A DNA stretch of 64,000 nt, taken from the IMG/VR virus record IMGVR_UViG_3300028535_000001. One strand, 5' to 3'. The notes below the pieces were generated by a model. It ran no database searches and was not told where the DNA came from. It saw nothing but the letters and a program-made list of their open reading frames with translations. The stretch's first letter is position 1. The number at the start of each line of letters is the position of its first letter. This document shows positions 36,015-58,669 of this stretch, piece by piece. Both the position numbers and the translations under genes were made by a program. The stretch comes from a virus.

Positions 36015-36203
36015 TTAAAAATTACAGCGAATATGAGTATAAAGATCATTTCCGGATAAATTTTTTGCATATTTTTTTACTGATTCTGTATCAAAATCAA
36101 AAAATCTGCAATTTTCAACATTTTTTGAGCAAGAAACTAGAACAAAAAGCGAACAGGCTAAAAAAAGCGCCATTTTACGTATATTTTTTGTATTTTTGAG
36201 CAT
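36015..36203 (-). CDS. Putative small lipoprotein
   Basis: Basic N-terminus, hydrophobic stretch and LVSC lipobox; start uncertain (36203 or 36173). Confidence 0.4.
   Translation of the reverse strand: MLKNTKNIRKMALFLACSLFVLVSCSKNVENCRFFDFDTESVKKYAKNLSGNDLYTHIRCNF
36140..36154. promoter_or_regulatory. Alphaproteobacterial LexA-type box GAAC-N7-GAAC
   Basis: GAAC AAAAAGC GAAC about 55 bp upstream of a sigma70 promoter. Confidence 0.55.
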
Positions 36204-36210
36204 TTTTTTG

Positions 36211-36239
36211 TTGACTTTTCTATATTTATCTGGTATAGT
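36211..36239 (+). promoter_or_regulatory. Sigma70-type early promoter
   Basis: TTGACT-17bp-TATAGT with extended TG. Confidence 0.8.
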
Positions 36240-36249
36240 GGACCAATAA

Positions 36250-36459
36250 ATGAAAATAATAAAGGAAAACACTATGAATACTTTTTTTAGTATTACAACT
36301 ATACTTTCTGCTATAATGGCAGTTGGTTTCATTGAAGATTGTGGTGGTCATTGTTTAGGAAACGATAACTGGCCAATGTTCTTTGTAATGTTTGGAATTA
36401 TGTTAATTTCAGGCATATTAACATTATACACTATGGAGGGAAATAATGACAATTGTTAA
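36250..36459 (+). CDS. Small two-TM membrane protein
   Basis: Two hydrophobic segments around EDCGGHC; probable start at MNTFF. Confidence 0.6.
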   Translation: MKIIKENTMNTFFSITTILSAIMAVGFIEDCGGHCLGNDNWPMFFVMFGIMLISGILTLYTMEGNNDNC

Positions 36460-36829
36460 TTTAAAAGCAACTTCTTTAGATGAAGGAGTTAAAAATATGA
36501 TGAATGGTGCCAAGGCAGATTATGTTTCTTGGACTACCGACAAAAATGGTAACGTTTCTGACTACTCAAAAGAAGAAATCGCAAATTGGGATAATAAAAC
36601 AACAGTAAAAAAAGGTCAAAAGTACATTAAGATCGTACATGACAGAGGTGTTTTTGCATTTATCGTAATAAATGATTTTAAACACTTTAAAAAAGGCGAT
36701 ATATTAAAAGCGGCTGGTTATAATGCACCTGCTTTAAATTCTCCTAGAGGAAATGTACTAAATGGCAATTACCATATCAAATGGACTGGTCCTTTGTATA
36801 TGGATTCACAAAGAAGATTAAGAGGATAA
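36446..36829 (+). CDS. Conserved phage early hypothetical protein
   Basis: KYIKI...KGDILKAAGYNAPA..RGNV motif; GGAGG RBS. Confidence 0.7.
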   Translation: MTIVNLKATSLDEGVKNMMNGAKADYVSWTTDKNGNVSDYSKEEIANWDNKTTVKKGQKYIKIVHDRGVFAFIVINDFKHFKKGDILKAAGYNAPALNSPRGNVLNGNYHIKWTGPLYMDSQRRLRG

Positions 36830-36830
36830 T

Positions 36831-37124
36831 ATGAATAGACGTGATAGAGTTTTTAGAAATATAGTAAACCCATTATTACTTAAACATATGTTAGACCCAT
36901 TTAAATATCAAGGGTCTTGTATAGCTGCTGGTATACCAATTAAGTATTTAAAATACTTTAAAGAAATTACTAGAGCTAAAAACGCCAAGAAAGTTAGATA
37001 TAGATATAGAGGTTGTTCAAAACCAAATTACAAAAGACCTCAATCTTTTTGTCATATTTTTGGTGCTGATACATTTAGTTTATATTATAGAAATCCAAAC
37101 AATAACTATTTTAGATATAATTAA
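36831..37124 (+). CDS. Basic hypothetical protein
   Basis: RYRYRG...RPQS...ADTFSLY. Confidence 0.6.
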   Translation: MNRRDRVFRNIVNPLLLKHMLDPFKYQGSCIAAGIPIKYLKYFKEITRAKNAKKVRYRYRGCSKPNYKRPQSFCHIFGADTFSLYYRNPNNNYFRYN

Positions 37125-37531
37125 CTATCTATAATACGTTTTCTTAAATCGGTGGTGGAGAACCTATGTTCTCTTTTATTGTAAACAATCTTTATGTGTT
37201 TCTTAACACATATCTCTTTACCAGTAAAATTCTTACCTTGATATTCTTCACCTATAATTCTAACTGATATATTATACATTTGGAATATATCTTCTAAATC
37301 TTTTTCTGTTTCGTATGGTATAACTTCATCTACATATTTTATAGCATTAAGTTGTATACTTCTCTCTACCAATGTTTGTATTGGTTTTTTCTTTTCTTTT
37401 GGTCTATCTATAGTTGGATCAGTTTGTAATCCAACAATCAAGTAATCGCATTCTTCTTTAGCGTCTTTTAACATCTGTACATGACCAGCATGTAACAAAT
37501 CAAAAGCACTACACGTAAATCCTACTTTCAT
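37121..37531 (-). CDS. Cytidylyltransferase (TagD-like)
   Basis: FDLLHAGH, LIVGLQTD, FSTTDLR. Confidence 0.9.
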   Translation of the reverse strand: MKVGFTCSAFDLLHAGHVQMLKDAKEECDYLIVGLQTDPTIDRPKEKKKPIQTLVERSIQLNAIKYVDEVIPYETEKDLEDIFQMYNISVRIIGEEYQGKNFTGKEICVKKHIKIVYNKREHRFSTTDLRKRIIDS

Positions 37532-38490
37532 ATTTTATCCTTTTCTTGCACTCTTTGACTATTAAATCCGTACAACTTTATATAGTTTGCAAGCCATTCA
37601 TGTCCTTTTTTATTTGGGTGTGTATTAGCTTTACTAATAACATAATCATAATTAACTAAATCTTTTGGAGCTATTTTATATAATGTTCTTCCATCGTCCT
37701 CCACATTTAATAACTTCATATCTGTATCTTTGTCGTGTACTCTTTCCTCGGATACGGAGTTCTTCTGCCGTTCTTCATAAGTACTATTAGCAGGATTAAA
37801 GGTAGAATTAGGTATATTATTGGCTAATCTATTTTCCACTCCCCAATTTTTATGTATTTGTACATCACCAAGAACAAAACCACCACATTCGTCAATGATA
37901 GGCCAACCAATAAAGTTTTTCATTTTATGGAAGTATGGTGATGTTTTAATTACATCACAACAACTATTATATATCTTTCTAAATGGTATACCATTATCTT
38001 TATATTCTACTTCATATAGATGATCTATAAATAAAGAAATCATTTGAAAATGTCTATATGGTATTCTATTATTTTCCATTAATGTTTGAAAGGCATACAT
38101 GTATCTTAATGAATCTAATATCCAAAAATGTACATGACCGTATAAATTAGGTTTACTATCATCCCAATTTAAAGAAATTTTTTGCCAATTTGCTCTTTGA
38201 CTTTTTGACCAGGCTGCAATACATAAACCAATTTCTTTTGGATCATGTGACACCACGTAATCTTGTATTGTTGAGAATATTCCTTGTTGACCAAAACCAC
38301 ACTTTGCTAAACAAACTAATTCCATATCTAATTTTTTTGCTAGTAGTTGTGCCCAATTAGGAAAATTCTTTATAGTAATTATATCACCATCATACCTTTG
38401 CCCTGGTACAACACCTTTTGGTGAATTTATTAAATTAACATATTCAATATCTGACCAACTACAACCACCAATTACTAATTTCTTTTTCAT
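37528..38490 (-). CDS. SGNH-like protein, paralogue of 7879..8679
   Basis: GGCSWS, MELVCLAK.G.G, IAAWS, THPNKKGH. Confidence 0.7.
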   Translation of the reverse strand: MKKKLVIGGCSWSDIEYVNLINSPKGVVPGQRYDGDIITIKNFPNWAQLLAKKLDMELVCLAKCGFGQQGIFSTIQDYVVSHDPKEIGLCIAAWSKSQRANWQKISLNWDDSKPNLYGHVHFWILDSLRYMYAFQTLMENNRIPYRHFQMISLFIDHLYEVEYKDNGIPFRKIYNSCCDVIKTSPYFHKMKNFIGWPIIDECGGFVLGDVQIHKNWGVENRLANNIPNSTFNPANSTYEERQKNSVSEERVHDKDTDMKLLNVEDDGRTLYKIAPKDLVNYDYVISKANTHPNKKGHEWLANYIKLYGFNSQRVQEKDKI

Positions 38491-38501
38491 TTTACCTTTT
38501 A

Positions 38502-39935
38502 CTATCCAACTGATCCTTCCATACTAACTTCTAATAGTTTATGTGCCTCTACTGCAAATTCCATAGGTAGTTTTTGAAATACATCTTTGCAAAAACCTGA
38601 TATAAGCAAGTTTCTAGCGTCTTCATCTTTTAGTCCACGTTGTCTTACATAAAATAGTTGTTCTTCATCTAGTTTAGATGTAGTTGCTTCGTGATTACAA
38701 TGGCTTGTTGAATTTTTATTTTCAATATATGGTACTGTATGAGCAGAACAATGGCTACCTAGTATTAATGAATCGCATTGTGTAAAGTTTTTTGAACTAC
38801 TTGCATTTTTCAAAATCTTTACTAAACCTCTGTACGTATTTGATGAATGTCCTGCAGATATTCCTTTTGATATAATTATACTTTTAGTATTTTTACCCAT
38901 GTGAATCATTTTAGTACCTGTGTCAGCCTGTTGTTTTCCATTTGTTAATGCAACTGAATAAAATTCTCCTACTGAATTATCACCCATTAATAAACAAGAT
39001 GGATACTTCCAAGTTATAGCAGAACCAGTTTCAAATTGTGTCCAAGAGATTTTTGAATTACGTCCTTTGCACTTGCCACGTTTAGTAACAAAATTGTATA
39101 TACCGCCTTTACCTGTAATAGGATCTCCTGGGTACCAGTTTTGTATTGTTGAATATTTTATTTCTGCGTCATCTAGTGCTACAAGTTCTACGTTAGCAGC
39201 GTGTAGTTGATTCTCATCCCTCATTGGTGCTGTACAACCTTCAAGGTAACTTACATAACTGCCTTTGTCTGCTATAATTAAAGTTCTTTCAAACTGTCCT
39301 GTGTTAGCCGCATTGATTCTAAAATATGTACTTAACTCCATTGGACATCTTATTCCTGGTGGCACATATACAAATGAACCATCTGTAAATACAGCAGAAT
39401 TTAAAGCGGCAAATGAATGATCACTTATAGGTATAACTGATCCTAAATATTTTTTTACAAGATCAGGATGTTCTTGTACTGCGTCTGAAAATGAACAAAA
39501 TATAATTCCTTTTTTTGATAATTCTTCTTTAAATGTAGTAGCAACGGATACAGAATCAAATACAGCGTCAACGGCCACTCCTGCTAGTTTGGCTCTTTCA
39601 GTTAATGGTATTCCTAATCTTTCAAAATCTTTTTTAATTTCTGGATCAACATCATCATATGATTTAGGACCTACTTTTGGTGCTGAGTAGTATGATATTG
39701 CTTGATAGTCTATAGGCTTAATATTAAGATTTGCCCAATCGGGTTGTTTTAAAATTTTCCATCTACGGTATGCTTTTAATCTAAATTCAAGTAACCATTT
39801 AGGTTCTTTTTTAATTTTTGAAATTTGTTTTATTGTGTTTTCGTTAAGGCCTGGTGGTAATGTTACTGATTCAACGTTTGTTGTAAACCCAGCATCATAT
39901 TTTTTGTTAATTTTTTCTTGTAGTATGTTATCCAT
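38502..39935 (-). CDS. sufB: Fe-S cluster assembly scaffold SufB
   Basis: [53 protein letters not shown]. Confidence 0.97.
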
Positions 39936-39937
39936 TT

Positions 39938-40384
39938 CTAATCCTTTATCATCTTACGAAATGGAATCATTGTTGAAGGATTAAAGTTATGTCGTTTATA
40001 AAATGTTTGTGCTTGTACATTTGTTTTATCTGTAAGTAAAGTAATTCGTTTACATCCTTTTTTAGTTCCATATTCTATAGCATAATCTAATAACTTTGAA
40101 CCAACACCTGAATCTCTATAATCAGGAGACACAATCATATCTTCAAGTATAGCAACTCGTTCACCTAATGCTGTTGATACTGTATATAAAAGTAAAACCA
40201 TTCCAATTATATCTTCATCTTTTTTTGCAACAAAAATATTACCAATATTGTTATTGTTGAGTATCATTTCTAAACCACGACTTTGTGTTTTATAATTAGG
40301 TTTAAACTCAACTTCTTTTTCAAATAGATAGTTAAGAAGAATACATAACTCTGGAATATCTTTAGTGGTTGCTATCTGTATCAT
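39938..40384 (-). CDS. GNAT acetyltransferase
   Basis: [20 protein letters not shown]...AQTFYKR. Confidence 0.88.
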
Positions 40385-40514
40385 TTTCAACTTTTTCATC
40401 AATATCTTTTTTCTTTTTCTTCCAAGGTTTAAGGTCTAACAAGACATAAAATATAACTCCACCACATAGACAGATAAACAAAAAACCTAATATTACTTTT
40501 AATATTGTTATCAT
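40362..40514 (-). CDS. Single-TM 50-aa protein (not in ORF track)
   Basis: MITILKVILGFLFICLCGGVIFYVLLDLKPWKK...; ATGA overlap. Confidence 0.55.
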   Translation of the reverse strand: MITILKVILGFLFICLCGGVIFYVLLDLKPWKKKKKDIDEKVENDTDSNH

Positions 40515-40864
40515 TTTTTAAACATTTCATCTAATCTACTATAGAAACTTTCTTTACTAGAATAGCCTACTAATCTTGCAACTTCTTTTCTACCATTCCA
40601 TATAATAAAAGTTGGTGTTCCTCTAATACCTTTAATTCTATTTTCGTTCATTGCCATTATAAACCAAAAAGGTTCTTCATTATGTTCTATAATAGTAAGT
40701 GGTAATTCTTTATTTTTAGAACCATATGAATAGCTAAAGTCTTCGGCGACTTGTTTAATAAATGCTTGACAAATATGACAATGCTTGTTTGAATACATTA
40801 ACAAGTCTAATGCTTGTATTGTTGTAGCATAAAACATTGCTAAAAGAAATATTAATATTTTCAT
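40511..40864 (-). CDS. Exported thioredoxin-like protein (SoxS-like)
   Basis: Signal peptide, CHIC, GTPTF, E..RLVGY. Confidence 0.8.
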   Translation of the reverse strand: MKILIFLLAMFYATTIQALDLLMYSNKHCHICQAFIKQVAEDFSYSYGSKNKELPLTIIEHNEEPFWFIMAMNENRIKGIRGTPTFIIWNGRKEVARLVGYSSKESFYSRLDEMFKK

Positions 40865-41292
40865 TATTTTTTCTCCACATGTGTTGCTTCACCTTTTTCA
40901 GTATCTATCCATTCTACCACTTGTGTATATTTTTTTGACTTAGCACATGTAGTCCTACATGCATTTGGTCCTATATTATTTGATAAGTCTTCTGCAAATT
41001 GTTTCCATTGTTTTGATTTTAATATATCTTCTATTTTATTGTTATCATCTATAACACTTGCTTTCAACATATCTTGCATTAATGGGTCGTTCATTGTATT
41101 TGGATCGTCAATTCTACAACAAGGTAGTAATACACCTTGATTAGAAACTGCTAAAGCAATTGCGTCTTTAAAACATAAAGGGTCTAACTCAATATCTCCT
41201 TTTGCTCTTAATGGTGATTTAGCTCCTAAAGAGTTATTGATTCTTCTAATATCAGCAGACCTATTAATTCCTCCAATTCTTTTTTTAATCAT
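40864..41292 (-). CDS. Stand-alone SPASM/twitch-like Fe-S protein (partner 3)
   Basis: PLC...LAVSNQGVLLPCCRID...CRTTC. Confidence 0.65.
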   Translation of the reverse strand: MIKKRIGGINRSADIRRINNSLGAKSPLRAKGDIELDPLCFKDAIALAVSNQGVLLPCCRIDDPNTMNDPLMQDMLKASVIDDNNKIEDILKSKQWKQFAEDLSNNIGPNACRTTCAKSKKYTQVVEWIDTEKGEATHVEKK

Positions 41293-42037
41293 CTCCGTTT
41301 TTCCTATCAAAACAACCACCCCTTACACACTCCTCAATGGATTGATGTTCGCTATGGTCATTTAATGTACTTTTTGTTTTAGGCTTTAACCAATCATCAT
41401 CATCTGTCCATCTTGCACTATTAATTATTATAAAATTAACATCATTATCTTTGGCCATTTTCATTGCTTGCCCAATACTCCTTTCATTATAACTGAATAT
41501 AATATATTGCCATAATGGTTTTGTGGAAAGATACTTTTTACTTTCTAACATAATCTTAAATAGTTTTTCGCCATCTTGATTTTTTCTATATATTCTACTA
41601 TCTTCAGGCATGCCATCTATACCAAATATCCAATTTGCTTTAGGGTTTGCTTGAAAGGCATTGATATAATGTTGCATAGGTTTTAAAGATGAAGCTACAT
41701 GTACTTCAACTTTAGTACCACGTTCTTTTGTGATTTTTAATAATTCGTTTATTTTTGGGTGATGTATTGGGTCTGAATATTGACCACAAAAAGATATTCT
41801 TGTAAACCAATCCAATAATTTATTAAATTCAGGTATTGTTAAATCTCTGCCTGGTACTTTAAGGCCTTTGTATAAGTAACTTCTTTGACGACCACAACGT
41901 AAACATTCTAATGGACACCTATGAGATAGATCAATGTTTAAACGTTTATGTCTTCTATCAAAAAAGGAATTTTCCTTTATTTTGATACCGTGTTCTTTAA
42001 AACACATGTCTATCTTTTCTCTATTCGTTTCAATCAT
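41285..42037 (-). CDS. Short radical SAM protein (paralogue 3)
   Basis: HRCPLECLRC, FCGQYSDPIHHP. Confidence 0.85.
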   Translation of the reverse strand: MIETNREKIDMCFKEHGIKIKENSFFDRRHKRLNIDLSHRCPLECLRCGRQRSYLYKGLKVPGRDLTIPEFNKLLDWFTRISFCGQYSDPIHHPKINELLKITKERGTKVEVHVASSLKPMQHYINAFQANPKANWIFGIDGMPEDSRIYRKNQDGEKLFKIMLESKKYLSTKPLWQYIIFSYNERSIGQAMKMAKDNDVNFIIINSARWTDDDDWLKPKTKSTLNDHSEHQSIEECVRGGCFDRKNGDD

Positions 42038-42054
42038 AATATAAAACTATTTAG

Positions 42055-42378
42055 TTAAATACTAAAAGATGTTCCACAACCACATGATGATTTAGTATTA
42101 GGGTTTTTGAATTGGAAAGAACTACCAAAGATTTCTTCTTTGTAATCCAACTCCATACCTGCGACATATATTTCAAATAGATTATCTATTACTACTAGAT
42201 TGTCAACTATAATATCATCTTTAGTTGGTGTCTTTTCAAATTCGTTTGGTATAAATGACCATTCGTATTCGTGACCTGCACAGCCACCACCTTTTACTTC
42301 TAGTCTAACATAATCTACTTTATGTTTTTCTTTTAAAATATTTAAATGTGCTTTCGCACCTTCCGTTAATGTAATCAT
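42055..42378 (-). CDS. A-type Fe-S carrier (IscA/SufA/HesB)
   Basis: GGGCAG, NPN.KSSCGCGTSF. Confidence 0.93.
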   Translation of the reverse strand: MITLTEGAKAHLNILKEKHKVDYVRLEVKGGGCAGHEYEWSFIPNEFEKTPTKDDIIVDNLVVIDNLFEIYVAGMELDYKEEIFGSSFQFKNPNTKSSCGCGTSFSI

Positions 42379-42387
42379 AATTTTCCT

Positions 42388-42660
42388 TTAGATAGGCATA
42401 CCAGTTTGTTTACCTATTTTAGGCTCTTCACCTAATATACTTCTATCTTGTTCTGTAGTATTATTTAGGTAAGTTTCATATTGCTCTTTTGTTAAACAAT
42501 AACATTGACCTACACTAGTAGGATATTTTTTATTATACTCTTGACTTATCACCACTGATTGTTGATAACAGTTATCATATGTTTCAAATGGTACTTCGTT
42601 GTGTATCGTCTGACAAGCAGTCCCTATACACATCATAATAACAAGAAAAAATTCTCCCAT
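42388..42660 (-). CDS. Hypothetical Cys-containing protein
   Basis: GGAGG RBS; 90 aa. Confidence 0.6.
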   Translation of the reverse strand: MGEFFLVIMMCIGTACQTIHNEVPFETYDNCYQQSVVISQEYNKKYPTSVGQCYCLTKEQYETYLNNTTEQDRSILGEEPKIGKQTGMPI

Positions 42661-42688
42661 TTTTCGTTCCTCCTAGAACTATCGGAAC

Positions 42689-42997
42689 TTAATTCCGATT
42701 TTTTTTACTTAACTCACCTTCATATTGCGCTAATAGCTTTTTACAGATACCGTACCAATAGATACCCGAGTCTCTTAGCATTTCATTGGAAGATCGTAGA
42801 CGTTCCAACTTGCGTTCTAAAACATCAAGACGGACCTTTGTTAATTTCTTCGTGCCATTATGTAAATGTTCAAGAGTCATAATTATATTATCAATGTCTG
42901 TACACGTATAATTCGGTACCTTCGGTGCCTTCTTCTTAAATGCCAACAAAGCATACTTAATATCGTGATATGTTACTTTGTTATTTTTATGCTCCAC
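42689..42997 (-). CDS. Hypothetical protein
   Basis: AAGGAG RBS; late promoter at 43087-43094. Confidence 0.6.
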   Translation of the reverse strand: MEHKNNKVTYHDIKYALLAFKKKAPKVPNYTCTDIDNIIMTLEHLHNGTKKLTKVRLDVLERKLERLRSSNEMLRDSGIYWYGICKKLLAQYEGELSKKNRN

Positions 42998-43276
42998 TAT
43001 ATCTCCTTACAATTTATTTTTTTATTAATAAATCACGTCAGAAATATTAGATATAGAATGAAATAGTTGGTAAATACCAACACTTATATTTATAAAAGAT
43101 TAGTGTAAAAAGTGAAAATTGTTTTTGCGATTAGTAATCAATGACCGATCAGTGTCCGGCCTATAGGGCTTTGGAGCCTTCCTTGAAACTCAACACCGTT
43201 ATATATGTTTTGTAAGATTTATAGGCCTAGTGTCTAATAGAATAATAATAACAAGTTAATACTCCTAAATACTTGT

Positions 43277-43837
43277 ATGAAATGGATGACCAACGATAAA
43301 CCAAAGAGTTGTCCTGATAGTAATAATCATTTTAAATACCAGAAAGAATCTGATCCTTTATACTACCAGGAACATAACGCCTTTAATGACGAAGAAATAA
43401 AACGTATAATAGAATGTGAGAAAACCGATCCTTGGTTACTTGAAAGATTATACCACTATATGAATAAAGCTAATGATAAAGGTTGGCATTACAGTATAGA
43501 TGGTGAACAAATACAATTACATAATTATAAACCAGGTAATCAATACATGTGGCATAGAGACGGAATATGTGGCCACAATAGTGTAATAAAGAACCTTGCT
43601 GATCCATTACATAATCTTACAAGAAAAATATCAATGACTATATTACTTAATGAACCATCTGAATTTACAGGTGGTAAGTTTCAAATAAAGAAACATGATA
43701 TAGAAGACTTTACAATAGATATGAAAAAGGGAACTGTTATTGTATTCCCTGCTTGGTTAGGCCATAGGGTAACACCTATAGAGACCGGCGAAAGACATAG
43801 TTTGCCTGTGTTCTTTTATGGAAGACCCTTTATTTAA
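43277..43837 (+). CDS. 2OG-Fe(II) oxygenase (prolyl-hydroxylase/PiuC-like)
   Basis: WHRD, RKISMTILLN, GG.F, HRVTP...G.RHSL. Confidence 0.88.
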   Translation: MKWMTNDKPKSCPDSNNHFKYQKESDPLYYQEHNAFNDEEIKRIIECEKTDPWLLERLYHYMNKANDKGWHYSIDGEQIQLHNYKPGNQYMWHRDGICGHNSVIKNLADPLHNLTRKISMTILLNEPSEFTGGKFQIKKHDIEDFTIDMKKGTVIVFPAWLGHRVTPIETGERHSLPVFFYGRPFI

Positions 43838-44090
43838 GACTTCAACCAAATAATAAAGAAACCTACAATGCTTGCAATCCAGGTCATCCATATATCTTCA
43901 TAGATAAAGATAGTGTCTAAAGAAGTAATAATAATAGGGATAGAAATACTGTTATAATGGCCAATATCCCACAAATATAATATATCTTATTTGCCAGGCT
44001 TTTCATTGTTCCACATAATCAGTAAAGCTAATACTAATAAAAAAGGAAGACTTATCAATAATAAATTTATAGTTAAATCCATTAACATAA

Positions 44091-44119
44091 TCATATACTA
44101 TTTATGTGATAAAGTCAAT
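44091..44119 (-). promoter_or_regulatory. Sigma70-type promoter driving short membrane-peptide ORFs
   Basis: TTGACT-17bp-TATGAT. Confidence 0.6.
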
Positions 44120-49214: not shown

Positions 49215-49240
49215 ATTTACTTCCTTTATATATACTGGTA

Positions 49241-49248
49241 TATTTATA
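49241..49248 (-). promoter_or_regulatory. Late promoter TATAAATA
   Basis: Exact consensus upstream of gp48. Confidence 0.7.
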
Positions 49249-49254
49249 ACGGAT

Positions 49255-49683: not shown

Positions 49684-51152
49684 TCTGTCCAACGACTATC
49701 CGAAGTATCTATTATAGTTCCATCTTTTGAATCATCTACAACACTAATATTTGCATTTGAAGCTTGACTGTTATCAGTAACTACGTTATTAAAAATGCTT
49801 GTATCAATACCTTTTTTTGCTAAATAATCGTTATTAGCTAAATTCAAAGCCTCAAATTCTGCTACAGCGTCTTTTTGCGCTTTCTTGTCTTCATAAAATT
49901 TTTTATTGCTGTTATATGCCAAAGGAACAGTAACTTCCAGTCCTTTATCAGCCTTATCCATTTCATCTTTGATTGTAGGTATTTTTCCAGCTGTTGCTGT
50001 AGACATTAAATCCATTTCTAAATCTGCTATCTTTGCCGTTAGTTTTGCTATCTTTTCAGGATCTTGGTCATCGGACCAGAAACCACTACCTGGAGCTGAT
50101 TTAGATTTTTCATCTGCTAATTTATTTTGTAGTTTTTTAAGTTCATCTGATTTTGCTGCTTCACCTTCCTCATCTACTAAACCTAATTTTCTACCTAACC
50201 ATGAATATTTGAACCAATCCATCAATTTTTTGAAGAATTGCCCAATTGCTTTTATCTTTGTTGCAACAAAAACAATAGCAGCAATTACCAATGCAAATTT
50301 AGCAATCAATATTAATCTAGCAAGTGAGAAAAAACCACCTATTGCTTTTAAACCTTTCCAAAGACCTTTAAATGCTTTTAAGAATATACCACCAGTTAAG
50401 AAATTAACTAGTTCTACTGAACCCTTACCTGTATCTTTCATCATATTAAAAGCTTCACCTATAGCATGAAAAGGTTCCATGAAAGCCATTTTTAATTGAT
50501 CTAAAAACATAGGCAATCCTTTAGATTTTTGTCCTGTGTTGGCAGTGACGTTAAGTGTATCGCCTGAAGTATCTTTATCTTTTTTTAATTTATCTAGTTC
50601 TTTTGTATTAGCAACTATTCTATCTTTTGTTGTTTTCTTTTCTTTATTGGATAAACTATCCCCAACCTGTAATTTTTTTCTATCTCTATCTAATTCTGTT
50701 TCTATTTTTGTAATATTCTTTTCTTTTAATTTAAATATCTTTTCTTCTTGTCTTATTTGTGATCTAGTTAATACTTCAACCTCTTTGGTCTCTTTATTAA
50801 CACGTGCAACAATATTTTGTTCTCTTAATTTTGTTACAGTCTCCTCTGACTCTCTGGCCTTTGTTTCTCTTTGTATCAATAAATCTGCCAACTCTGTACT
50901 GTATTCTCTTAAATCTAGACCTAACTTTTCAACCAATTTTTCTAATTTCACAATCACTCTTGTAAAACTATGAACAGGACCTTTCTTCAAATCAACTGTT
51001 AACTCATTTATCATTTTAGGTATATTGGGTAGAATAGTCTTAGCTGAGGCTGCAATTGAGCTGTTAACCTTTGCCTTTATTATCTGACCTAAACTGTCAA
51101 TCGCTTGTTGTGTTTGGTCTGTACCTTGGTTTTCTACTATTGGTAATGCCAT
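49680..51152 (-). CDS. Putative tape-measure-like protein (gp29 position)
   Basis: Long coiled coil plus hydrophobic segment; lies downstream of gp26/gp51. Confidence 0.5.
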   Translation of the reverse strand: MALPIVENQGTDQTQQAIDSLGQIIKAKVNSSIAASAKTILPNIPKMINELTVDLKKGPVHSFTRVIVKLEKLVEKLGLDLREYSTELADLLIQRETKARESEETVTKLREQNIVARVNKETKEVEVLTRSQIRQEEKIFKLKEKNITKIETELDRDRKKLQVGDSLSNKEKKTTKDRIVANTKELDKLKKDKDTSGDTLNVTANTGQKSKGLPMFLDQLKMAFMEPFHAIGEAFNMMKDTGKGSVELVNFLTGGIFLKAFKGLWKGLKAIGGFFSLARLILIAKFALVIAAIVFVATKIKAIGQFFKKLMDWFKYSWLGRKLGLVDEEGEAAKSDELKKLQNKLADEKSKSAPGSGFWSDDQDPEKIAKLTAKIADLEMDLMSTATAGKIPTIKDEMDKADKGLEVTVPLAYNSNKKFYEDKKAQKDAVAEFEALNLANNDYLAKKGIDTSIFNNVVTDNSQASNANISVVDDSKDGTIIDTSDSRWTD

Positions 51153-51157
51153 ATTAG

Positions 51158-51517
51158 TTATTTATCTTTACCCTTATCTGATCCTGCATATAATCCGAAC
51201 CAGGCAGCGCCAGCACCAACAACAACAGAAATTAATCCTGATTGTTCCATACTAGGTTGTCCTAATTCCATATACCATATTACACATTTGTATAATAATA
51301 TAATATACGTTGTTATGAATATTCTAGGGAATATTCTCCAACTATCTATTGCTCTTGCTAAGTGAATCCATTTTCCATATGGGTTTACGCCTATGTCTCT
51401 GATTGAGGTATCCACATCAAGATCAACCCTAATTTTTTGTTTAGGTTCTTTTACTGCTACAGGTTCTAACTTTTTTTCTATTTTAATTTCTTTAATTTCT
51501 TTAATTTCTTCTGACAT
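51158..51517 (-). CDS. Two-TM membrane protein (possible holin)
   Basis: WRIFPR, two TM segments, charged termini. Confidence 0.5.
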   Translation of the reverse strand: MSEEIKEIKEIKIEKKLEPVAVKEPKQKIRVDLDVDTSIRDIGVNPYGKWIHLARAIDSWRIFPRIFITTYIILLYKCVIWYMELGQPSMEQSGLISVVVGAGAAWFGLYAGSDKGKDK

Positions 51518-51518
51518 A

Positions 51519-51725
51519 TTATTCCTCCCTTATAATATATTTAATTGGATAATCTGATTTAACAACTATCTTTTTTTCAGTTTCTACATTCCAAAAAGCA
51601 ATATGGTTTGGTTTAATCTCAACAAACTTTTTAACTTGTAAAGTTTCTGACTTGCCTTCAAACCAATAAGTTAATTGTGCAGGATGTCCTACAATCCAAT
51701 ACCATATGTTTTTTAGTATGCTCAT
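51519..51725 (-). CDS. Hypothetical protein
   Basis: 68 aa; TAATG coupling. Confidence 0.6.
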   Translation of the reverse strand: MSILKNIWYWIVGHPAQLTYWFEGKSETLQVKKFVEIKPNHIAFWNVETEKKIVVKSDYPIKYIIREE

Positions 51726-51850
51726 TATTTCTCCCTTTTTCTTTTTTCATTTTCTTCTTTAATATAATTAATTAACATCGTAACGTAAATATCACGTTCC
51801 CATGGTATCATATGTTCAATCTCGGTAATGCTATACTTATGATGTTGCAT
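51725..51850 (-). CDS. gp51: Baseplate hub assembly catalyst gp51 (not in ORF track; frame open upstream to the gp26 slippery site)
   Basis: MQHHKYSITEIEHMIPWERDIYV...EEN signature. Confidence 0.88.
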   Translation of the reverse strand: MQHHKYSITEIEHMIPWERDIYVTMLINYIKEENEKRKREK

Positions 51851-51879
51851 TAACGAAAAGTTTACTTCAAAAAACGCCT

Positions 51880-52614
51880 CTAGGCTACTATGGGTGAGGC
51901 CAATCCGAAAAAATCGTTGAGTCCTTCAAAGGTCACTTTACTTTTAACACCTGTCTTTGGATTTGTGACTTCTTGCGTATGTCTCAATCTAGGCATAGTA
52001 TCAAAAAATTTTCTAATTTTATCAAAAGTACCTTGTGGCATTTTCTCAAAAAATTCTTTTAATTCTTCTTTAGTAGTATCTACTCCAGGGTACACTTTAT
52101 CTCCTTCAAAAACTTCGTGTACACAACCTAACATTAAATCAAATACAGTATCGTAATCAGCGTCCTTTAACGTTTTGCTGTTTATCATTGCCATCGTAGG
52201 ATATTTGAGAACAACACCCAATTGCCTAGTGTCATCAAATACTACTTTGTTTGTATGTCCATCATCTACTTGGACCTCAATCTTTGATATGTCAATTTCA
52301 ATATCTGTATAAGTTTTCTTATCGTCTGGACATATAACTTGAAATTTTGATATTTCACCAACTGACTTTGCTCTTATTTGTAAGAACATATACTCAATGT
52401 CAAATGTAGGCAAATTTAAAATATCTATTTTGTTAAATGTACAAGCACCTAAAACTTGTTTGGTTGCTTCTTGTATTTGTTTTTCTTCACCAGACTCTAG
52501 AGCAATCAACATCATTTTTTCTTCTTTTACAAGAAAAGGTCTAAATTTAACTTTTGTTTCTTGCGAAGGTAATGTCAACTCATAAGTTGGTGTTTCTATT
52601 ATCGGTAATGCCAT
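51880..52614 (-). CDS. gp26: Baseplate hub assembly chaperone gp26
   Basis: MALP...PTYEL.LPS, RPFLVKEEK, FDIEY.FLQIRAKSVGE, EGLNDFF. Confidence 0.92.
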   Translation of the reverse strand: MALPIIETPTYELTLPSQETKVKFRPFLVKEEKMMLIALESGEEKQIQEATKQVLGACTFNKIDILNLPTFDIEYMFLQIRAKSVGEISKFQVICPDDKKTYTDIEIDISKIEVQVDDGHTNKVVFDDTRQLGVVLKYPTMAMINSKTLKDADYDTVFDLMLGCVHEVFEGDKVYPGVDTTKEELKEFFEKMPQGTFDKIRKFFDTMPRLRHTQEVTNPKTGVKSKVTFEGLNDFFGLASPIVA

Positions 52615-52632
52615 AATATTATCTCCTTGTTA

Positions 52633-53613
52633 TTATATATTTATTGGTGGTAGTTTGAACGGTGGGAACACTCTACCGCCAGTAATTCTACCTAGTGGTG
52701 CTCTACGTCTCAAATTGTTCAATACGTCTCTACCTGCTCGTCTCAATTCTGGTGGAAGTTTACCTAATAAACCTCCAAATAAACCGGACTGTTCTTTTAC
52801 ACTTGGTTTTCCAAATTTAGGTTGACCAAGTTCTATGTTGCCTTGTTTGTCTAAAAAGAAATTAATCCAATACATAAATTTAAATGTAACTGTAAATGTT
52901 TGTACTGTATTTGAATCATGTGAATAATCTACTTTACTAATACTTGTTGGTAAACAATCAAACAATTGTACACCATATGTTATTTCGTCTCTCTCTTGTC
53001 TAGACGCAAATGATCCTAACTGATATATTCTCATATCTGACACGTAATTTTTATAGTAATTCATATTGAAAGATTTAGTACTGAAAGCGGCACTTTGCCA
53101 CATTTCAAAATATGATCTTTCTCTCATAAATTTATCTGCATAAAACGTTGCTGTAATCTCTGCTGATTTAAAATCAATTGCAACGTGTCTAGTTGGTGTA
53201 TTACCATGTCTAACTTCTTTGGTAACTATTTCTCTATCAGGCATTTCAATAGCACTACAAAATGCTTGAACACGTCTACCGTTTGCTATATGTACTGCAT
53301 TCATATCTTGAGCTGTAAAAAATGAATCATACGTTTCATCTGCCATAGATGAAGATACGGAACCTGCTGAACCATCTGGTCCACCACCTAAAGATTTAGG
53401 TAACATAAACTCAACATAAAATCTTGCCTTACGAGCAAAACCTTCTGCCTCATTTACCATAGCCTGCACTCTACCCATTGTAGATTCAGGATTACCACCC
53501 ATATTTCGTTTTAATCTTTTATCACCTGCCACATTGTCAAGTGATCTATCTCTCGGTATACCAATTCTAATATCGTATCCGCCTATTCTTTTTCCGCCTC
53601 TTAATATCGCCAT
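52633..53613 (-). CDS. gp54: Baseplate tail-tube initiator gp54-like
   Basis: GFARKARF.V, C...EMP, ERSYFE.WQ, P.SI...YS....Q.FTVTF.F..W. Confidence 0.72.
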   Translation of the reverse strand: MAILRGGKRIGGYDIRIGIPRDRSLDNVAGDKRLKRNMGGNPESTMGRVQAMVNEAEGFARKARFYVEFMLPKSLGGGPDGSAGSVSSSMADETYDSFFTAQDMNAVHIANGRRVQAFCSAIEMPDREIVTKEVRHGNTPTRHVAIDFKSAEITATFYADKFMRERSYFEMWQSAAFSTKSFNMNYYKNYVSDMRIYQLGSFASRQERDEITYGVQLFDCLPTSISKVDYSHDSNTVQTFTVTFKFMYWINFFLDKQGNIELGQPKFGKPSVKEQSGLFGGLLGKLPPELRRAGRDVLNNLRRRAPLGRITGGRVFPPFKLPPINI

Positions 53614-54146
53614 TAATATGGTCTCCCTTTTTTAAATTGTGCGATTGGTAAATATACTGCTAAAGCAGCCTCATTATAATCAACTCTTAAATATTGACTT
53701 CTAGTGTGTGCCCACAAATACTTTTTAATAGCATTCTTTGTAAGTGGTAACTTTTTAATTCTGTTATAACTGACATCAAATCTATTTTTAGCACTTATCT
53801 CTCCTGCTCCATGTATAGCATATCTTTGTAATTGTGTTAACAAAGTAAATCTTTGGTTTGGTGGTAAATAGTGAAAATTAATACCAGCAAATCCATTCTT
53901 TATTGGCTCTAGTGGTAACACTAAAGGAAAAATATCATAATATGGTAATGTCTGTTTATATTTAGGATCGTAAACAAATAAATTAAGCCTACCAACACTA
54001 GGTCTACCTATCAATTTACCTTGAGCCATTAATCTTCTTGCTGATATTCTATCGTAAATAGAACCTACAGCTTTCCTATACCATGAGGATGACTTTTGAC
54101 CACCATCTGCTTTATCAACCAGATTGTCTAAAATGCTTAATGCCAT
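53613..54146 (-). CDS. gp2: DNA end protector gp2
   Basis: YDPKYKQTLPYYD.FPLV, GINFHYLPP..R, LP.AQFKK. Confidence 0.9.
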   Translation of the reverse strand: MALSILDNLVDKADGGQKSSSWYRKAVGSIYDRISARRLMAQGKLIGRPSVGRLNLFVYDPKYKQTLPYYDIFPLVLPLEPIKNGFAGINFHYLPPNQRFTLLTQLQRYAIHGAGEISAKNRFDVSYNRIKKLPLTKNAIKKYLWAHTRSQYLRVDYNEAALAVYLPIAQFKKGRPY

Positions 54147-54154
54147 TATGGGTA

Positions 54155-54162
54155 TATTTATA
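54155..54162 (-). promoter_or_regulatory. Late promoter TATAAATA
   Basis: Exact consensus upstream of gp2. Confidence 0.75.
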
Positions 54163-54163
54163 C

Positions 54164-54194
54164 AAAAAAAAGGGCTATTATTGCTAATAGCCCT
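54164..54194 (-). terminator. Rho-independent terminator after gp32
   Basis: AGGGCTATTA-GCAA-TAATAGCCCT followed by a U tract on the minus strand. Confidence 0.9.
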
Positions 54195-54226
54195 TTAAAG
54201 TATGTCTAACGGAGGGAATAGTTAGT

Positions 54227-55129
54227 TTACTGATCGTCCTCGGCTAATTTACTAAAGTAAGATAACGTATCGTCATCATCACTAGCCGCTGGAGCAGTAG
54301 GTATTTCACTCATACTTTTCACACTACCAGCTGATTTAACGGTTGGCGGGAGCTCATCGTTATCTGCTGTTTTAGTGCTTCTTGTACCTGAAATTACCCT
54401 ATTCAGTTTCTCTTTGAGTTCATCATAGGACTTAAAATTGTCAGGTGCTAAGAATGGTTTTAGAGGATATTGTGTAGACCAGATTGCTTTAATCTTGTCA
54501 TCACCGTCAGCTGTTGCCGACACTGCCTCAAATTCAGATTTGTCATAGTTCCAATAACCATCAACTTTTCTGATTTTTAGTTTAAAGTTTGCACCTTTCC
54601 AAAAATCAAATGGGTTAATTGGTTTCTCATCTTCAAATGCTGGTTGCATTGCTTCTGTTATCTTATCAAAAATCTTTTTACCAAATTTAAATAAGAACAC
54701 TTTACCTTCATTCTCTGGATGTTTTGGATCAGATACGCATAGAATATTTGAGAAATAAGAAAGTTTTCTTTTTCTTTTTCTAGCAATATCTTTATCACTA
54801 TCAACACCAGTATTCCACAATCTTGTGTTTTCTTCGGACACAGGATCCTTTTGGCTTAATGTTGTTAATGAGTTTTCAATATACCAGCCGCCTCTATCTT
54901 GGAAGGCATGTGACCAAACTCTCTGCCAAGGTAAATCTTCTCCTTGTATAGCAGGTAAAAATCTGATTACTGCATAACCATTACCAGTTTTATCTAGTTC
55001 AGGTTTCCAAAATCTGTCGTCTTGGTATTTGTTTTTGTTTGATTGATCCTCGGAATTGAGGTTCTTTTCAAGTGCTTTAGTAAGTTTGTCAAAGCCACTT
55101 GATGATGATTTTAATGCTTCAAAATCCAT
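54227..55129 (-). CDS. gp32: ssDNA-binding protein gp32
   Basis: DDRFWKP..DK.GNGYAVIRFLP, GGWYIENSLTT, FDFWKGANFKLK, acidic tail. Confidence 0.97.
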   Translation of the reverse strand: MDFEALKSSSSGFDKLTKALEKNLNSEDQSNKNKYQDDRFWKPELDKTGNGYAVIRFLPAIQGEDLPWQRVWSHAFQDRGGWYIENSLTTLSQKDPVSEENTRLWNTGVDSDKDIARKRKRKLSYFSNILCVSDPKHPENEGKVFLFKFGKKIFDKITEAMQPAFEDEKPINPFDFWKGANFKLKIRKVDGYWNYDKSEFEAVSATADGDDKIKAIWSTQYPLKPFLAPDNFKSYDELKEKLNRVISGTRSTKTADNDELPPTVKSAGSVKSMSEIPTAPAASDDDDTLSYFSKLAEDDQ

Positions 55130-55212
55130 ATTATTTTCTCCTTTGTATATATTTTCGTATTGTTATATTTGTGTTCCCTATATTATCGGGATCATTATTA
55201 TTTATAAGTCTT

Positions 55213-55440
55213 TTAAAGGTATTTACCAGTTTTTTTATCTCTCTTATGTGCTCTACCAGGTTTTAGTAATCTATTCTCACCCTTTGGCCACCTCATTTCA
55301 ATTTTCAATAAACTTCCATCGGCTTTCAAAATTTGTATATCGTGTCCATTAGGTTCACTATTATCCCAATATCTAACATAATTGTTAATCTTAATAGTTT
55401 TAGTTGGCGTCTTTTTACTCATACCATTTATAATACTCAT
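55213..55440 (-). CDS. Hypothetical protein
   Basis: 75 aa or shorter; TTGACA promoter candidate at about 55451-55478. Confidence 0.5.
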   Translation of the reverse strand: MSIINGMSKKTPTKTIKINNYVRYWDNSEPNGHDIQILKADGSLLKIEMRWPKGENRLLKPGRAHKRDKKTGKYL

Positions 55441-55485
55441 ATTAGGTGTAATATAACATATCCTAGTTATATTGTCAATGCTCCT

Positions 55486-56379
55486 TTAGCCTGTTAATGT
55501 TTCCATAGTAGGATAGTCAATATAGAATACGTTTTTAAGACCTTCCCACTCTTTTATTGCTCTATCAATGGCGTCATGTCCAACATCAGCCTTTGGATTG
55601 ACTTTATAAAACGTCACTCCTGGGTTGTTAATCATTAATGATTTCCATTGAGTAATCCAATTGTCTGTTGGTACTTGTTGTTGTTCTTTTAAACCATAGT
55701 ATTTGGTATCTTTGTATATATTGTTTATCAAATCATCATTACTAGCCAGATCATGGCCAATTAAAAACAGTTCTAAACTAATTTTATGTTCATTATCATC
55801 GGCGTCATTATATAAGTCTGTTGCCTTTGGTTGTTTTTCTTTTAGTATTGCAATTGCACCAGCAGTAGGACCAGCAGCAAAACCCCAATCTCTTGGTTTC
55901 ATTATATCGTCAATAGATTGTTCTTTACTATTCATGGTACACCAACTGACATCAACAGCAGTATGATTTACATTTTTACTTTCTTGTTTCTTATTCTGTT
56001 TTAAAATTTTAACTGCACCTGATATATTAGAACCATGCATTACAAACTCTTGGCAATCACCTCTCTCATTTGAGTTAATCAATTTTTGTTCCTTAACAAT
56101 GGCCATTTCTTCGGCAGTTATTGAGGCGCCTGCATTTATAACAGACTCATATATTGGTGCTGGTAATCTTGTCCAACCTCTTAAATATGTTTCATTGTTT
56201 TGGCAATAACCACTATTGTATATTTCATGGCAAATACCTGAATCAACTGCAACTAAAACATCTGGTGTAAAATCTCTATATAAGGCATTACAACCATATG
56301 TCCTACCTTTTTCTTTTAAATTAGTTAAATTATAATTTTTTCGGCTTTCACCATTACCTATAATAAATGCACTAGACAT
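55486..56379 (-). CDS. Conserved protein with IIGNGESR motif (DUF115/MptE- or sialyltransferase-like fold)
   Basis: IIGNGESR, YGCNALYRD, LIGHD. Confidence 0.5.
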   Translation of the reverse strand: MSSAFIIGNGESRKNYNLTNLKEKGRTYGCNALYRDFTPDVLVAVDSGICHEIYNSGYCQNNETYLRGWTRLPAPIYESVINAGASITAEEMAIVKEQKLINSNERGDCQEFVMHGSNISGAVKILKQNKKQESKNVNHTAVDVSWCTMNSKEQSIDDIMKPRDWGFAAGPTAGAIAILKEKQPKATDLYNDADDNEHKISLELFLIGHDLASNDDLINNIYKDTKYYGLKEQQQVPTDNWITQWKSLMINNPGVTFYKVNPKADVGHDAIDRAIKEWEGLKNVFYIDYPTMETLTG

Positions 56380-56743
56380 AAACTTTTAAAATTCCTATTA
56401 ATAATACCATCGCTAAACAACTATTTAAAACCATCAATGCACGGTCATGCCATAGAATACCTACCCATAACCAACCCAATGTACCTATTAAACTTACATA
56501 TAAATCAACATTATGATAAGCAGTACCAGCGGCTCTAAAACAAACTGCCGATAATATTAAAATACAACTAAGCCATTTTATATACCATGAAAAATCATGT
56601 AAAGGTGTTACCTTACTTAATACTTTTTCTATTTGTTTTTGTTTAATTTCTTTTTTTTCAATTGTTAAATGTTTCTTTTTCTTTTTAACAATATCTTTCA
56701 TATCTTTCCATATTCCATCATTTGTCATCTTTTTTATCTTCAT
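56372..56743 (-). CDS. Three-TM membrane protein
   Basis: SWYIKW...GWLWVGILWHDRALMVLN. Confidence 0.65.
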   Translation of the reverse strand: MKIKKMTNDGIWKDMKDIVKKKKKHLTIEKKEIKQKQIEKVLSKVTPLHDFSWYIKWLSCILILSAVCFRAAGTAYHNVDLYVSLIGTLGWLWVGILWHDRALMVLNSCLAMVLLIGILKVYV

Positions 56744-56828
56744 TAATCACATACCACACTAGTGTTAGGATTATTATCATTACTACTATACCTGTTAACA
56801 ATAGTCCAAAACCATCAGCCGCTGTCAT
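56718..56828 (-). CDS. Single-TM 36-aa peptide (not in ORF track)
   Basis: MTAADGFGLLLTGIVVMIIILTLVWYVINEDKKDDK; TAATG coupling. Confidence 0.5.
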   Translation of the reverse strand: MTAADGFGLLLTGIVVMIIILTLVWYVINEDKKDDK

Positions 56829-57985
56829 TAAATTCCTTTCTTCATTACGTTATAAACTATTTTTTTCCAATTATAATGTTGGTCATCTGTATTAACAACA
56901 ATTACTTGACCTGTTTCCATGTTCATAACTATTTGTTGACCACCAGCACCGTCCATTGCAAATATAATACTATCTTTCATACCCTTAAATGTCATATGAA
57001 ACTGACCACCGTATTCGTATGTGGCCTGGTGAGAGCCTTTATTATAATCTCTTTTAAATCTACTATTTTTGGTAACTCTATTATCGTATATAGTTCTTAA
57101 ATAATCACCAATACAAGTATCAGAATTAAAATCTTTAATTATAGTATTAGCTATTCTTAAATAATCTTCACTCTTAGCATAAAAAGAATATCTACTTACG
57201 CCTTTATCTACGTCTTGTTTTGACCAAGAAACTTTGACAAAGTGTACATCATCTTTTACACCAACATGATCTGTAAATATTTCTTTTAATAATTTCTCAT
57301 AATTATCATAACCAACTTTGTGAATTACATAGTTGATAGCAACATGTGTTGACATTGCACTATAATTGTAAGGAGAGTTTTCCTCTTTCTTTTTTGTGCC
57401 TTTAAACCACAACATGCTCTCTGCAACAGTTCTTCTATTGATTTGTTTAGTTTTATTGTCTTTAAAAAAACCATCATTTCTAAATTTCTTTTCACCAATA
57501 TAGTCTTCGTCACCTGAAGTCATATTTAAAACTTGCATTAAGTTATTATCTACATATAAAGTATTGTTAATAACAACCCAATCATTTAATTGTTTATTCA
57601 AATCAATACCATATTTACAAACAGCATGACCTGTCACATATGAAATTAAACTTTTACCCATTGAATTAGATTGAAAAAGACCCTTATTTTCTTTAACATC
57701 GTTAGTCCAATTATTTTTATTTACTTTAATCTTACCATCTTCAAAAACAATATAAGATATTAAACCAGTTTTATCGTTGTTTTCTAATTGTTTATCAACA
57801 TAAGTTGTTAATTTATTTTCAACTAACTCTGTTTCTAATTTTTGATAATCATTTGAACCAGGAGCCGAAAAAGATATACCTTTAAAGTTATGTTCTTGTT
57901 GTTTGTGGTCAGCATTAGCAATATTGTTAAGACCCAACCATAGTAATACGTTGATTGTGATTATTGTTATTAGTAGTTTTTTCAT
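56828..57985 (-). CDS. Exported serine hydrolase, beta-lactamase/class C PBP-like fold
   Basis: Signal peptide; SNSMGKS (SxxK), LNMTSG, YNYS, DGAGGQ. Confidence 0.8.
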   Translation of the reverse strand: MKKLLITIITINVLLWLGLNNIANADHKQQEHNFKGISFSAPGSNDYQKLETELVENKLTTYVDKQLENNDKTGLISYIVFEDGKIKVNKNNWTNDVKENKGLFQSNSMGKSLISYVTGHAVCKYGIDLNKQLNDWVVINNTLYVDNNLMQVLNMTSGDEDYIGEKKFRNDGFFKDNKTKQINRRTVAESMLWFKGTKKKEENSPYNYSAMSTHVAINYVIHKVGYDNYEKLLKEIFTDHVGVKDDVHFVKVSWSKQDVDKGVSRYSFYAKSEDYLRIANTIIKDFNSDTCIGDYLRTIYDNRVTKNSRFKRDYNKGSHQATYEYGGQFHMTFKGMKDSIIFAMDGAGGQQIVMNMETGQVIVVNTDDQHYNWKKIVYNVMKKGI

Positions 57986-58012
57986 AGTGTTTTATCCTTT
58001 GTTTATTGTATT

Positions 58013-58041
58013 ATAATAACATATTCCTACTGAAAAAGCAA
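58013..58041 (-). promoter_or_regulatory. Sigma70-type promoter
   Basis: TTGCTT-17bp-TATTAT with extended TG. Confidence 0.6.
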
Positions 58042-58054
58042 GCTTTTTCTGCTA

Positions 58055-58069
58055 GAACATTTAGCGAAC
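58055..58069. promoter_or_regulatory. Alphaproteobacterial LexA-type box (GTTC-N7-GTTC on -)
   Basis: GAAC ATTTAGC GAAC, 13 bp upstream of the -35 element. Confidence 0.55.
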
Positions 58070-58669
58070 AAACACGTCCTTTAATGTTAATTTACACTCT
58101 GTTTGGTTGAATTTAACGAATTTATTGAATTTTTTAAGTCTTTTTGAGAGTATAGGCCAAATAAATTTCTCTGAAATCTGTTTGTCCCAACGTTTGGCAA
58201 ATCCTAGAAAATGGTCTAAAATTACCGTTGTTTGGAAAGTTATATTTTTCTTAATAAGAAGTTGTAACAACCTTGGATGCTGTCCATTATTGCAACTAAA
58301 ACCAGAATCAAAAGAAAGAGACCTAGTAGAAAAGTCATCAGCAATCCGTAAGCAATCGTTTCTAAAATGGTAACTAATACCATCGGTATATTTTTTATAG
58401 TTGAGATAAACTTGTTTGCCATCTTTACTTAATAAATTACCAACCCATTGCCTGTCATCGTCTAAAAAATTAGCAACGAAGAAGTCTGTTATTTCATATT
58501 TATCATAGTGCTTACTTAACTTATGGAAGAAGTATCTATCATTACGTTTGGTAAATGTCTCTAATTTACAATTGACCTTACCACCATAATTAAAATAATC
58601 ATAATTATCTGTTGTAAAATGTAATTTTATTGCCAGATAAGTTTTAAATACCTCAAATCCATCATGCAT
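58061..58669 (-). CDS. gp59: Helicase loader gp59
   Basis: F..YLAIKLHFT...YDYF.YGGK, KRNDRYFF.KLS, GQHP.LL. Confidence 0.9.
   Translation of the reverse strand: MHDGFEVFKTYLAIKLHFTTDNYDYFNYGGKVNCKLETFTKRNDRYFFHKLSKHYDKYEITDFFVANFLDDDRQWVGNLLSKDGKQVYLNYKKYTDGISYHFRNDCLRIADDFSTRSLSFDSGFSCNNGQHPRLLQLLIKKNITFQTTVILDHFLGFAKRWDKQISEKFIWPILSKRLKKFNKFVKFNQTECKLTLKDVFVR

Follow-up and report, generated by a model that had tools for sequence, protein, structure and literature searches.

Does a myophage of the sunlit ocean carry operators for the LexA protein of its host and, if so, what might it use them for? The question is raised by two near-identical 19-mers found in a stretch of 64,000 nucleotides (nt) of viral DNA, the IMG/VR record IMGVR_UViG_3300028535_000001 (this whole stretch is hereafter referred to as the window), both of which match the LexA box of Alphaproteobacteria and lie near promoters. 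The window, whose G+C content is about 31%, comes from an uncultured pelagimyophage that is kin to its nearest named relatives, i.e., Pelagibacter phage Mosig EXVC030M (about 77% nucleotide identity in conserved genes) and HTVC008M, two T4-like Kyanoviridae isolated on Candidatus Pelagibacter ubique HTCC1062. SAR11 is the most abundant bacterium of the ocean, and SAR11 and its phages dominate the sunlit surface water, where ultraviolet (UV) damage is routine. The comparisons reported below lend good support to the idea that the boxes are genuine LexA-type operators, conserved and kept by selection in SAR11 myophages, and suggest that these phages may read, or drain, the SOS signal of the host. 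Two further relatives of the window were used: a complete genome of 177 kilobases (kb), G007, and a near-identical 64-kb IMG/VR record, G001.

The two sites are the following:

36137-36155, plus strand: site 1, a LexA-type box whose core (36140-36154) is a perfect GAAC-N7-GAAC.

58052-58070, plus strand: site 2, a LexA-type box with its core at 58055-58069, overlapping the stop codon of gp59 and inverted with respect to the downstream gene.

The two 19-mers are identical at 16 of the 19 positions, and each contains a perfect GAAC-N7-GAAC. The original prediction, made from the letters of the window, had placed both beside sigma70-type promoters, and their positions were borne out: site 1, on the plus strand, lies 55 nt upstream of a strong plus-strand promoter of this type (36211-36239), and site 2, also on the plus strand, precedes by 10 nt the -35 element of a putative minus-strand promoter, an arrangement kept in relatives. 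The overlaps of site 1 with a lipoprotein gene and of site 2 with the gp59 stop codon had instead been missed.

The alphaproteobacterial LexA box has been described as GTTC-N7-GTTC (PMC9578287, PMC3323433), and the identification of the motif with this operator, already proposed in the original prediction, agrees both with these reports and with the motifs lying upstream of lexA, umuD and recA in SAR11. The SAR11 genomes were reached via a 16S probe sequence, and lexA is present in all five of them. This gene is preceded by a perfect GAAC-N7-GAAC and by a second, imperfect copy; umuD is preceded by a perfect box abutting its start codon, and recA by a box with one changed letter, which was read as lying between the -35 and -10 elements. 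A fourth conserved box separates a divergent pair of genes, one for ribonucleotide reductase and the other of the phosphoglucomutase type (e.g., positions 1201-1215 of locus L200); this hints that one of the two genes belongs to the SAR11 SOS regulon. Since the SAR11 genomes (1.3-1.4 megabases; G002-G004) contain 9-12 perfect boxes each versus 28-35 occurrences of a reversed control pattern, SAR11 avoids stray boxes. Both stress and infection by phages are known to elicit a response of the SAR11 SOS genes (PMC2864753, PMC12753301). Mosig, HTVC008M and G007 all contain the host umuD operator as an exact 15-mer.

The conservation of site 1 was assessed on loci fetched through the neighbouring 613-amino-acid (aa) baseplate protein (64-98% identity), the box being ignored; 36 of these loci had enough upstream DNA. 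A perfect box was found in the 5' part of the lipoprotein gene in 29 of the 36, the repeat at any other spacer length occurring in 0-5 loci. The site 1 boxes contain 15 different spacers, and their distances from the start codon cover all three reading frames of the lipoprotein gene; therefore, the constraint is on the DNA and not on the peptide. In the 27 distinct orthologues, the first half is preceded by A in 26 cases and the second is followed by A in all 27, as in the host operators, and seven of the loci carry exact variants of the host umuD operator. In Mosig, the box of this region is present, shifted by about 9 nt. As for site 2, the box is found at six out of six loci with the gp59-then-385-aa gene order, in three spacer variants, and in the relatives it is held 13-14 nt from the -35 element despite the replacement of the sequence between. 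Hence the motif is kept in relatives at both places, one of the points on which the original prediction could have failed, and the half-sites are constrained whereas the spacers (15 variants at site 1 and three at site 2) are not, as expected for the site of a dimeric protein.

An exact scan of IMG/VR for the 19-mer returned 48 matches, made up of relatives with the box in the same lipoprotein gene, of an unrelated lipoprotein gene and of chance occurrences in unrelated high-GC contigs; it was not used for judging conservation because this set is biased by construction. In the unrelated lipoprotein gene (contigs of about 37% G+C; loci L004, L011, L015 and similar), the 19-mer pattern falls across the lipobox in another frame, a coincidence. 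The exact 19-mer of site 2 also occurs in a 336-nt intergenic region of a different, small phage contig with a terminase gene (33% G+C; record G008, seen at L033 10188-10206 and L046 5514-5532), where it may be either a chance occurrence or another LexA-type site.

The specificity of the motif was then examined in four pelagimyophage genomes, whose intergenic DNA, delimited by heuristic, crude gene calls made for this analysis and taken with 12 nt of gene edge on each side, amounts to 37.2 kb. The direct repeat with spacers from 0 to 15 nt occurs 0, 0, 1, 1, 0, 1, 0, 9, 1, 0, 1, 0, 0, 0, 2 and 0 times, respectively, and the nine occurrences at spacer 7 compare with 0-3 for each of twelve half-site permutations at the same spacer; the genomes are related and not independent of one another. 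G007 was reached through site 1, and Mosig and HTVC008M were found by homology, independently of the box; these two phages alone yield 5 intergenic occurrences at spacer 7 versus about 0.2 per other spacer. Each pelagimyophage genome has 2-3 intergenic boxes, and the perfect boxes over the whole genome are 4 in Mosig, 8 in HTVC008M and 15 in G007. One intergenic box was found in the cyanophage S-RIM12 and none in the intergenic DNA of Melnitz, a related myophage whose host clade, OM43, is non-alphaproteobacterial (PMC9004378). The orthologous divergent region of site 1 is lacking in Melnitz, so that this phage offers no comparison for site 1, and a search of its genome for Escherichia coli-type LexA boxes, which would have been the signature of a host swap, gave nothing convincing, one match resembling part of a tRNA. 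At the sequence level, these data demonstrate the spacing of the motif, its conservation with turnover, its identity with host operators and its restriction, among the phages compared, to SAR11 myophages; the binding of host LexA to the phage boxes, as well as the sign and size of any regulatory effect, are predicted from them.

In the window alone, three perfect GAAC-N7-GAAC were counted versus 1.13 expected, and 11 out of 100 shuffles reach three. Accordingly, the enrichment scan proposed with the original prediction had a mixed outcome: the excess is not significant in the window, which is at chance level, and it is clear only across related genomes, where the intergenic DNA displays the sharp spacer-7 peak. 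Two further copies of the motif are present in the window:

37759-37773, minus strand: third perfect box, inside a 320-aa gene.

55162-55176, minus strand: one-mismatch copy in the gp32 leader, a chance occurrence outside the system.

The third perfect box is probably due to chance because it is missing from the near-identical G001, whose record should cover the place by offset. The one-mismatch copy had been proposed as a meaningful site and turned out to be noise: one-mismatch copies in the window are 27 versus 34 expected, neither Mosig nor HTVC008M conserves its first half, and its place in the gp32 leader is behind a late promoter. This exact T4-type late promoter (TATAAATA, 55199-55206, minus strand) lies ahead of the leader and is conserved in Mosig and HTVC008M.

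Some regularities emerge from the position of the boxes with respect to genes and promoters. Of the nine intergenic boxes, eight touch or overlap the stop codon of the preceding gene, in many cases via the TAG of a half-site, and most of the boxes are oriented like the downstream gene, site 2 of the window being the inverted exception. Three classes of distance between the box and the -35 element can be told apart: one of 10-20 nt, which includes site 2 of the window and one site each in HTVC008M and G007; one of about 40-70 nt, seen in the site 1 family, in G007 and in Mosig; and one of about 100 nt, at the peptidase locus. The -35 and -10 variants that are frequent in these phages escape a strict promoter scan. 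The downstream genes to which a function can be tentatively assigned encode secreted or membrane proteins, or a peptidase. G007 and Mosig have in common a box at the end of one gene, before an early promoter. A repeated element of about 25 nt, able to form a hairpin, directly follows the box at 87274-87300 and 133421-133447 in HTVC008M and near 13945-13970 in Mosig.

The locus of site 1 comprises the following features:

36015-36203, minus strand: small lipoprotein gene (62 aa), with a signal peptide, a lipobox cysteine and a C-terminal Cys-Asn/Asp-Phe (here Cys-Asn-Phe).

36211-36239, plus strand: sigma70-type early promoter that drives the cassette listed next (TTGACT and TATAGT 17 nt apart, plus an extended TG), matching 10 of 12 consensus positions.

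36250-37124, plus strand: cassette of three small genes encoding a 69-aa hydrophobic protein (likely a membrane protein), a 127-aa DUF7717-like protein and a 97-aa protein.

Site 1 lies inside the lipoprotein gene, 48 nt past its start codon, and on the minus strand it encodes part of the hydrophobic core of the signal peptide. This gene is kept across pelagimyophage-like contigs immediately upstream of the baseplate gene block, with a highly variable signal peptide. The equivalents of the site 1 promoter in the relatives are found 38-72 nt from the box. The cassette runs against the surrounding minus-strand structural (baseplate) genes, a layout repeated in G007 and Mosig, and is likely to be the unit regulated from site 1, for which it is the candidate.

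The locus of site 2 is organized as follows:

58061-58669, minus strand: gp59 helicase-loader gene, whose last codons and stop codon fall within site 2.

58032-58049, no strand assigned: inverted repeat with arms of 8 base pairs and a 2-nt gap, between the box and the promoter and overlapping the -35 element.

58013-58041, minus strand: putative early promoter of the 385-aa gene, read by eye, with a weak -35 element TTGCTT (58036-58041), a spacing of 17 nt and a -10 element TATTAT (58013-58018).

56828-57985, minus strand: gene downstream of site 2 encoding a 385-aa secreted protein, with a weak match to a beta-lactamase/transpeptidase fold.

The consensus scan omitted the site 2 promoter because its -35 element is weak. 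The inverted repeat is missing in a lineage with a 91% identical gp59. Mosig has no 385-aa gene at this position, no gp59-then-385-aa gene order and no box there. The signal peptide of the 385-aa protein (57911-57985, minus strand) closely resembles those of unrelated 110-aa secreted proteins of G007 (87333-87662) and Mosig (117431-117757), whose genes are likewise preceded by an early promoter and a box; different cargo genes may have a promoter-plus-signal-peptide module in common. Directly upstream of gp59, a transfer-messenger RNA (tmRNA) gene of the alphaproteobacterial type (permuted, two-piece) was recognized at 58687-58983 on the minus strand (Rfam RF01849, 93.5 bits); ARAGORN did not report it, and Mosig has an annotated tmRNA in the same gene neighbourhood.

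The explanation that in our opinion best accounts for the whole set of data, with a probability of roughly 0.55, is that host LexA bound at the boxes might locally damp or insulate the adjacent early accessory genes until it is cleaved. The element would consist of the consensus A-GAAC, seven bases, GAAC-A, kept at the upstream edge of a few intergenic regions endowed with sigma70-type early promoters. In an undamaged SAR11 cell, LexA dimers would occupy the phage boxes, and the transcription of the adjacent accessory early genes would be damped or insulated; in the window, the targets would be the cassette 36250-37124, the 385-aa gene 56828-57985 and possibly the lipoprotein gene overlapping site 1. 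The cleavage of LexA, following UV damage or an SOS response perhaps triggered by the infection itself, would then release these genes, thus providing the phage with a damage or timing signal supplied by the host. In a wider proposal, which falls just short of even odds, a set of early accessory genes (mostly envelope or secreted) would be under the conserved control of LexA, with an infection programme partly set by the SOS state, while the replicating phage DNA would drain LexA and raise recA and ribonucleotide reductase.

Several observations weigh against a role of LexA in local regulation. In the host, operators lie over the promoter core or the transcription start, whereas in the phages 10-110 nt separate the box from the -35 element downstream of it, away from the promoter core (site 1 being in a coding sequence), so that simple repression is not the obvious reading. 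Both window sites have GC before the second half, where host sites have A or T. There are few sites per phage genome, and seven of the 36 site 1 loci have no perfect box. The SAR11 podophages HTVC010P and HTVC019P have no box either; HTVC011P, also a SAR11 podophage, has two. Finally, both window sites fall below the threshold of a weight matrix built from nine host operators, a result that was given no weight, the matrix being thin, with one misaligned row and with spacer letters penalized.

A serious rival, even though we regard it as rather unlikely, is that the boxes act as decoys, i.e., that their copies on replicating phage DNA would soak up the small LexA pool of SAR11 and so switch on recA, umuDC and possibly ribonucleotide reductase without damage. 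It gains plausibility from the host side, given that SAR11 has very few operators and avoids spurious ones, that one of them adjoins a ribonucleotide reductase gene, and that the SOS and nrd genes are raised in host cells infected with a different pelagiphage (PMC12753301); each phage genome, in turn, adds 4-15 perfect boxes, whose distance from the promoter varies. Decoys, however, could sit anywhere, yet the boxes keep to the same few orthologous places, a moved box stays within about 40 nt, and the distance of 13-14 nt between site 2 and the -35 element is fixed although the intervening sequence has been replaced. Local regulation is favoured precisely because of this constancy of place, to which site 2 adds a fixed distance from the promoter; the two roles could also be played at once.

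Other roles appear less likely than decoys. The boxes might be bound by a different protein, either an unrecognized phage DNA-binding protein or another host factor, the likeness to LexA boxes being due to convergence or mimicry; a position upstream of the -35 element is indeed more typical of an activator or architectural site, and the site 1 orthologues have a run of A after the first half that is not common to all the host operators. Nevertheless, core, spacing and flanks equal those of the host lexA, umuD and recA operators, some 15-mers being identical, and the motif is absent from the intergenic DNA of Melnitz, the sister phage from OM43. Moreover, the search for a phage-encoded repressor suggested by the original prediction, made for a LexA homologue, found none in three related phage genomes and one related contig, and this rival accordingly seems to us improbable. 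Still less probable is a signal acting at the RNA level, a terminator-like signal or the boundary of a mobile promoter/stem-loop cassette, marking the end of a transcript or a recombination joint. The abutment of eight of nine intergenic boxes on an upstream stop codon, the orientation of most boxes with transcription, and the hairpins that follow several of them (the box-plus-hairpin element being found in two HTVC008M copies and one Mosig copy) would be in keeping with such a signal. But site 2 points against the direction of transcription, the region around site 1 is divergent, the hairpins are not conserved, and the constraint falls on the half-sites alone with a free spacer, which fits a dimeric DNA-binding protein. 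That the motif merely happens to be spelled by hydrophobic, T-rich codons in a signal peptide and by the final codons of gp59 is very improbable, notwithstanding the lack of a significant excess in the window alone, the location of site 1 in a lipoprotein signal peptide, the half-coding nature of site 2 and the unrelated phage lipoprotein gene spelling the same 19-mer in another reading frame: chance and coding constraint do not account for the sharply specific spacing, for the three reading frames and 15 spacers in use, or for the Mosig box, which is shifted by about 9 nt and yet present. A coding by-product had been the first reading given to the boxes, and it was dropped once the loci retrieved independently of the box had given three frames and 15 spacers, together with the spacer-7 peak.

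If the boxes are compared with known systems, the closest is the alphaproteobacterial LexA operator itself (Caulobacter, Rhodobacter and others), with the same half-sites, the same seven-base spacer and the same flanking A, and with an identical motif preceding the SOS genes lexA, umuD and recA (the last with one letter changed) in the host clade. The phage boxes differ in belonging to a virus and in their place, which is either a coding sequence or the DNA upstream of the -35 element; their binding by LexA is predicted. The co-option of LexA by temperate phages and mobile elements is described in PMC4551915 and PMC9437464 for GIL01 with gp7, for the CTX phage and for the Tum system of coliphage 186. 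As in these cases, a mobile element would have host LexA sites near its own promoters, so that host DNA damage could alter its expression; in those systems, however, boxes lying over the promoter switch a temperate element from lysogeny to lysis, whereas the pelagimyophage sites flank accessory early genes, and the closest named relatives of the window belong to the T4-like Kyanoviridae, which are known as a virulent type.

Host regulators are also exploited by virulent phages. Cyanophages use the host PhoB, and similar cases are phi29 with Spo0A and the CtrA boxes in phages of Alphaproteobacteria (PMC9437464). The pelagimyophages would resemble them as lytic phages with conserved sites for a global regulator of the host, through which the state of the host might be sensed, and would differ in the regulator (LexA) and in the signal (DNA damage), both of which are here predicted from sequence. 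A further term of comparison is represented by the promoter and stem-loop cassettes (PeSL) of T4-type phages, which reportedly recur between accessory genes (Arbiol et al. 2010) and which, to our knowledge, have not been described as carrying a site for a host repressor. The pelagimyophage regions are likewise short stretches between genes that combine a stem-loop with an early promoter, two HTVC008M copies having both box and hairpin; here the constrained letters are those of the two half-sites and not those of the hairpin.

As far as we could find, no literature exists on LexA boxes in pelagiphages or in T4-like virulent phages. If the proposal is true, no virulent T4-type phage would, to that extent, have had a host-LexA regulon described before, and the regulon would operate in the most abundant virus-host pair of the surface ocean, extending the co-option of LexA from temperate elements to a virulent phage family. 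It would also bear on temporal control. We know of no middle-mode transcription system in the T4-like phages of SAR11; marine T4-like phages lack MotA and AsiA, and a study of Melnitz identified no middle promoters (PMC9004378), so that LexA would become a candidate for their unexplained temporal control. The claim is accessible in the cultured pairs formed by HTVC008M or Mosig with HTCC1062. The genes affected would be early accessory ones, perhaps concerned with superinfection exclusion or with the timing of envelope changes, and the outcome of infection would depend on the DNA damage suffered by the host, thus linking exposure to light and UV to the viral mortality of SAR11.

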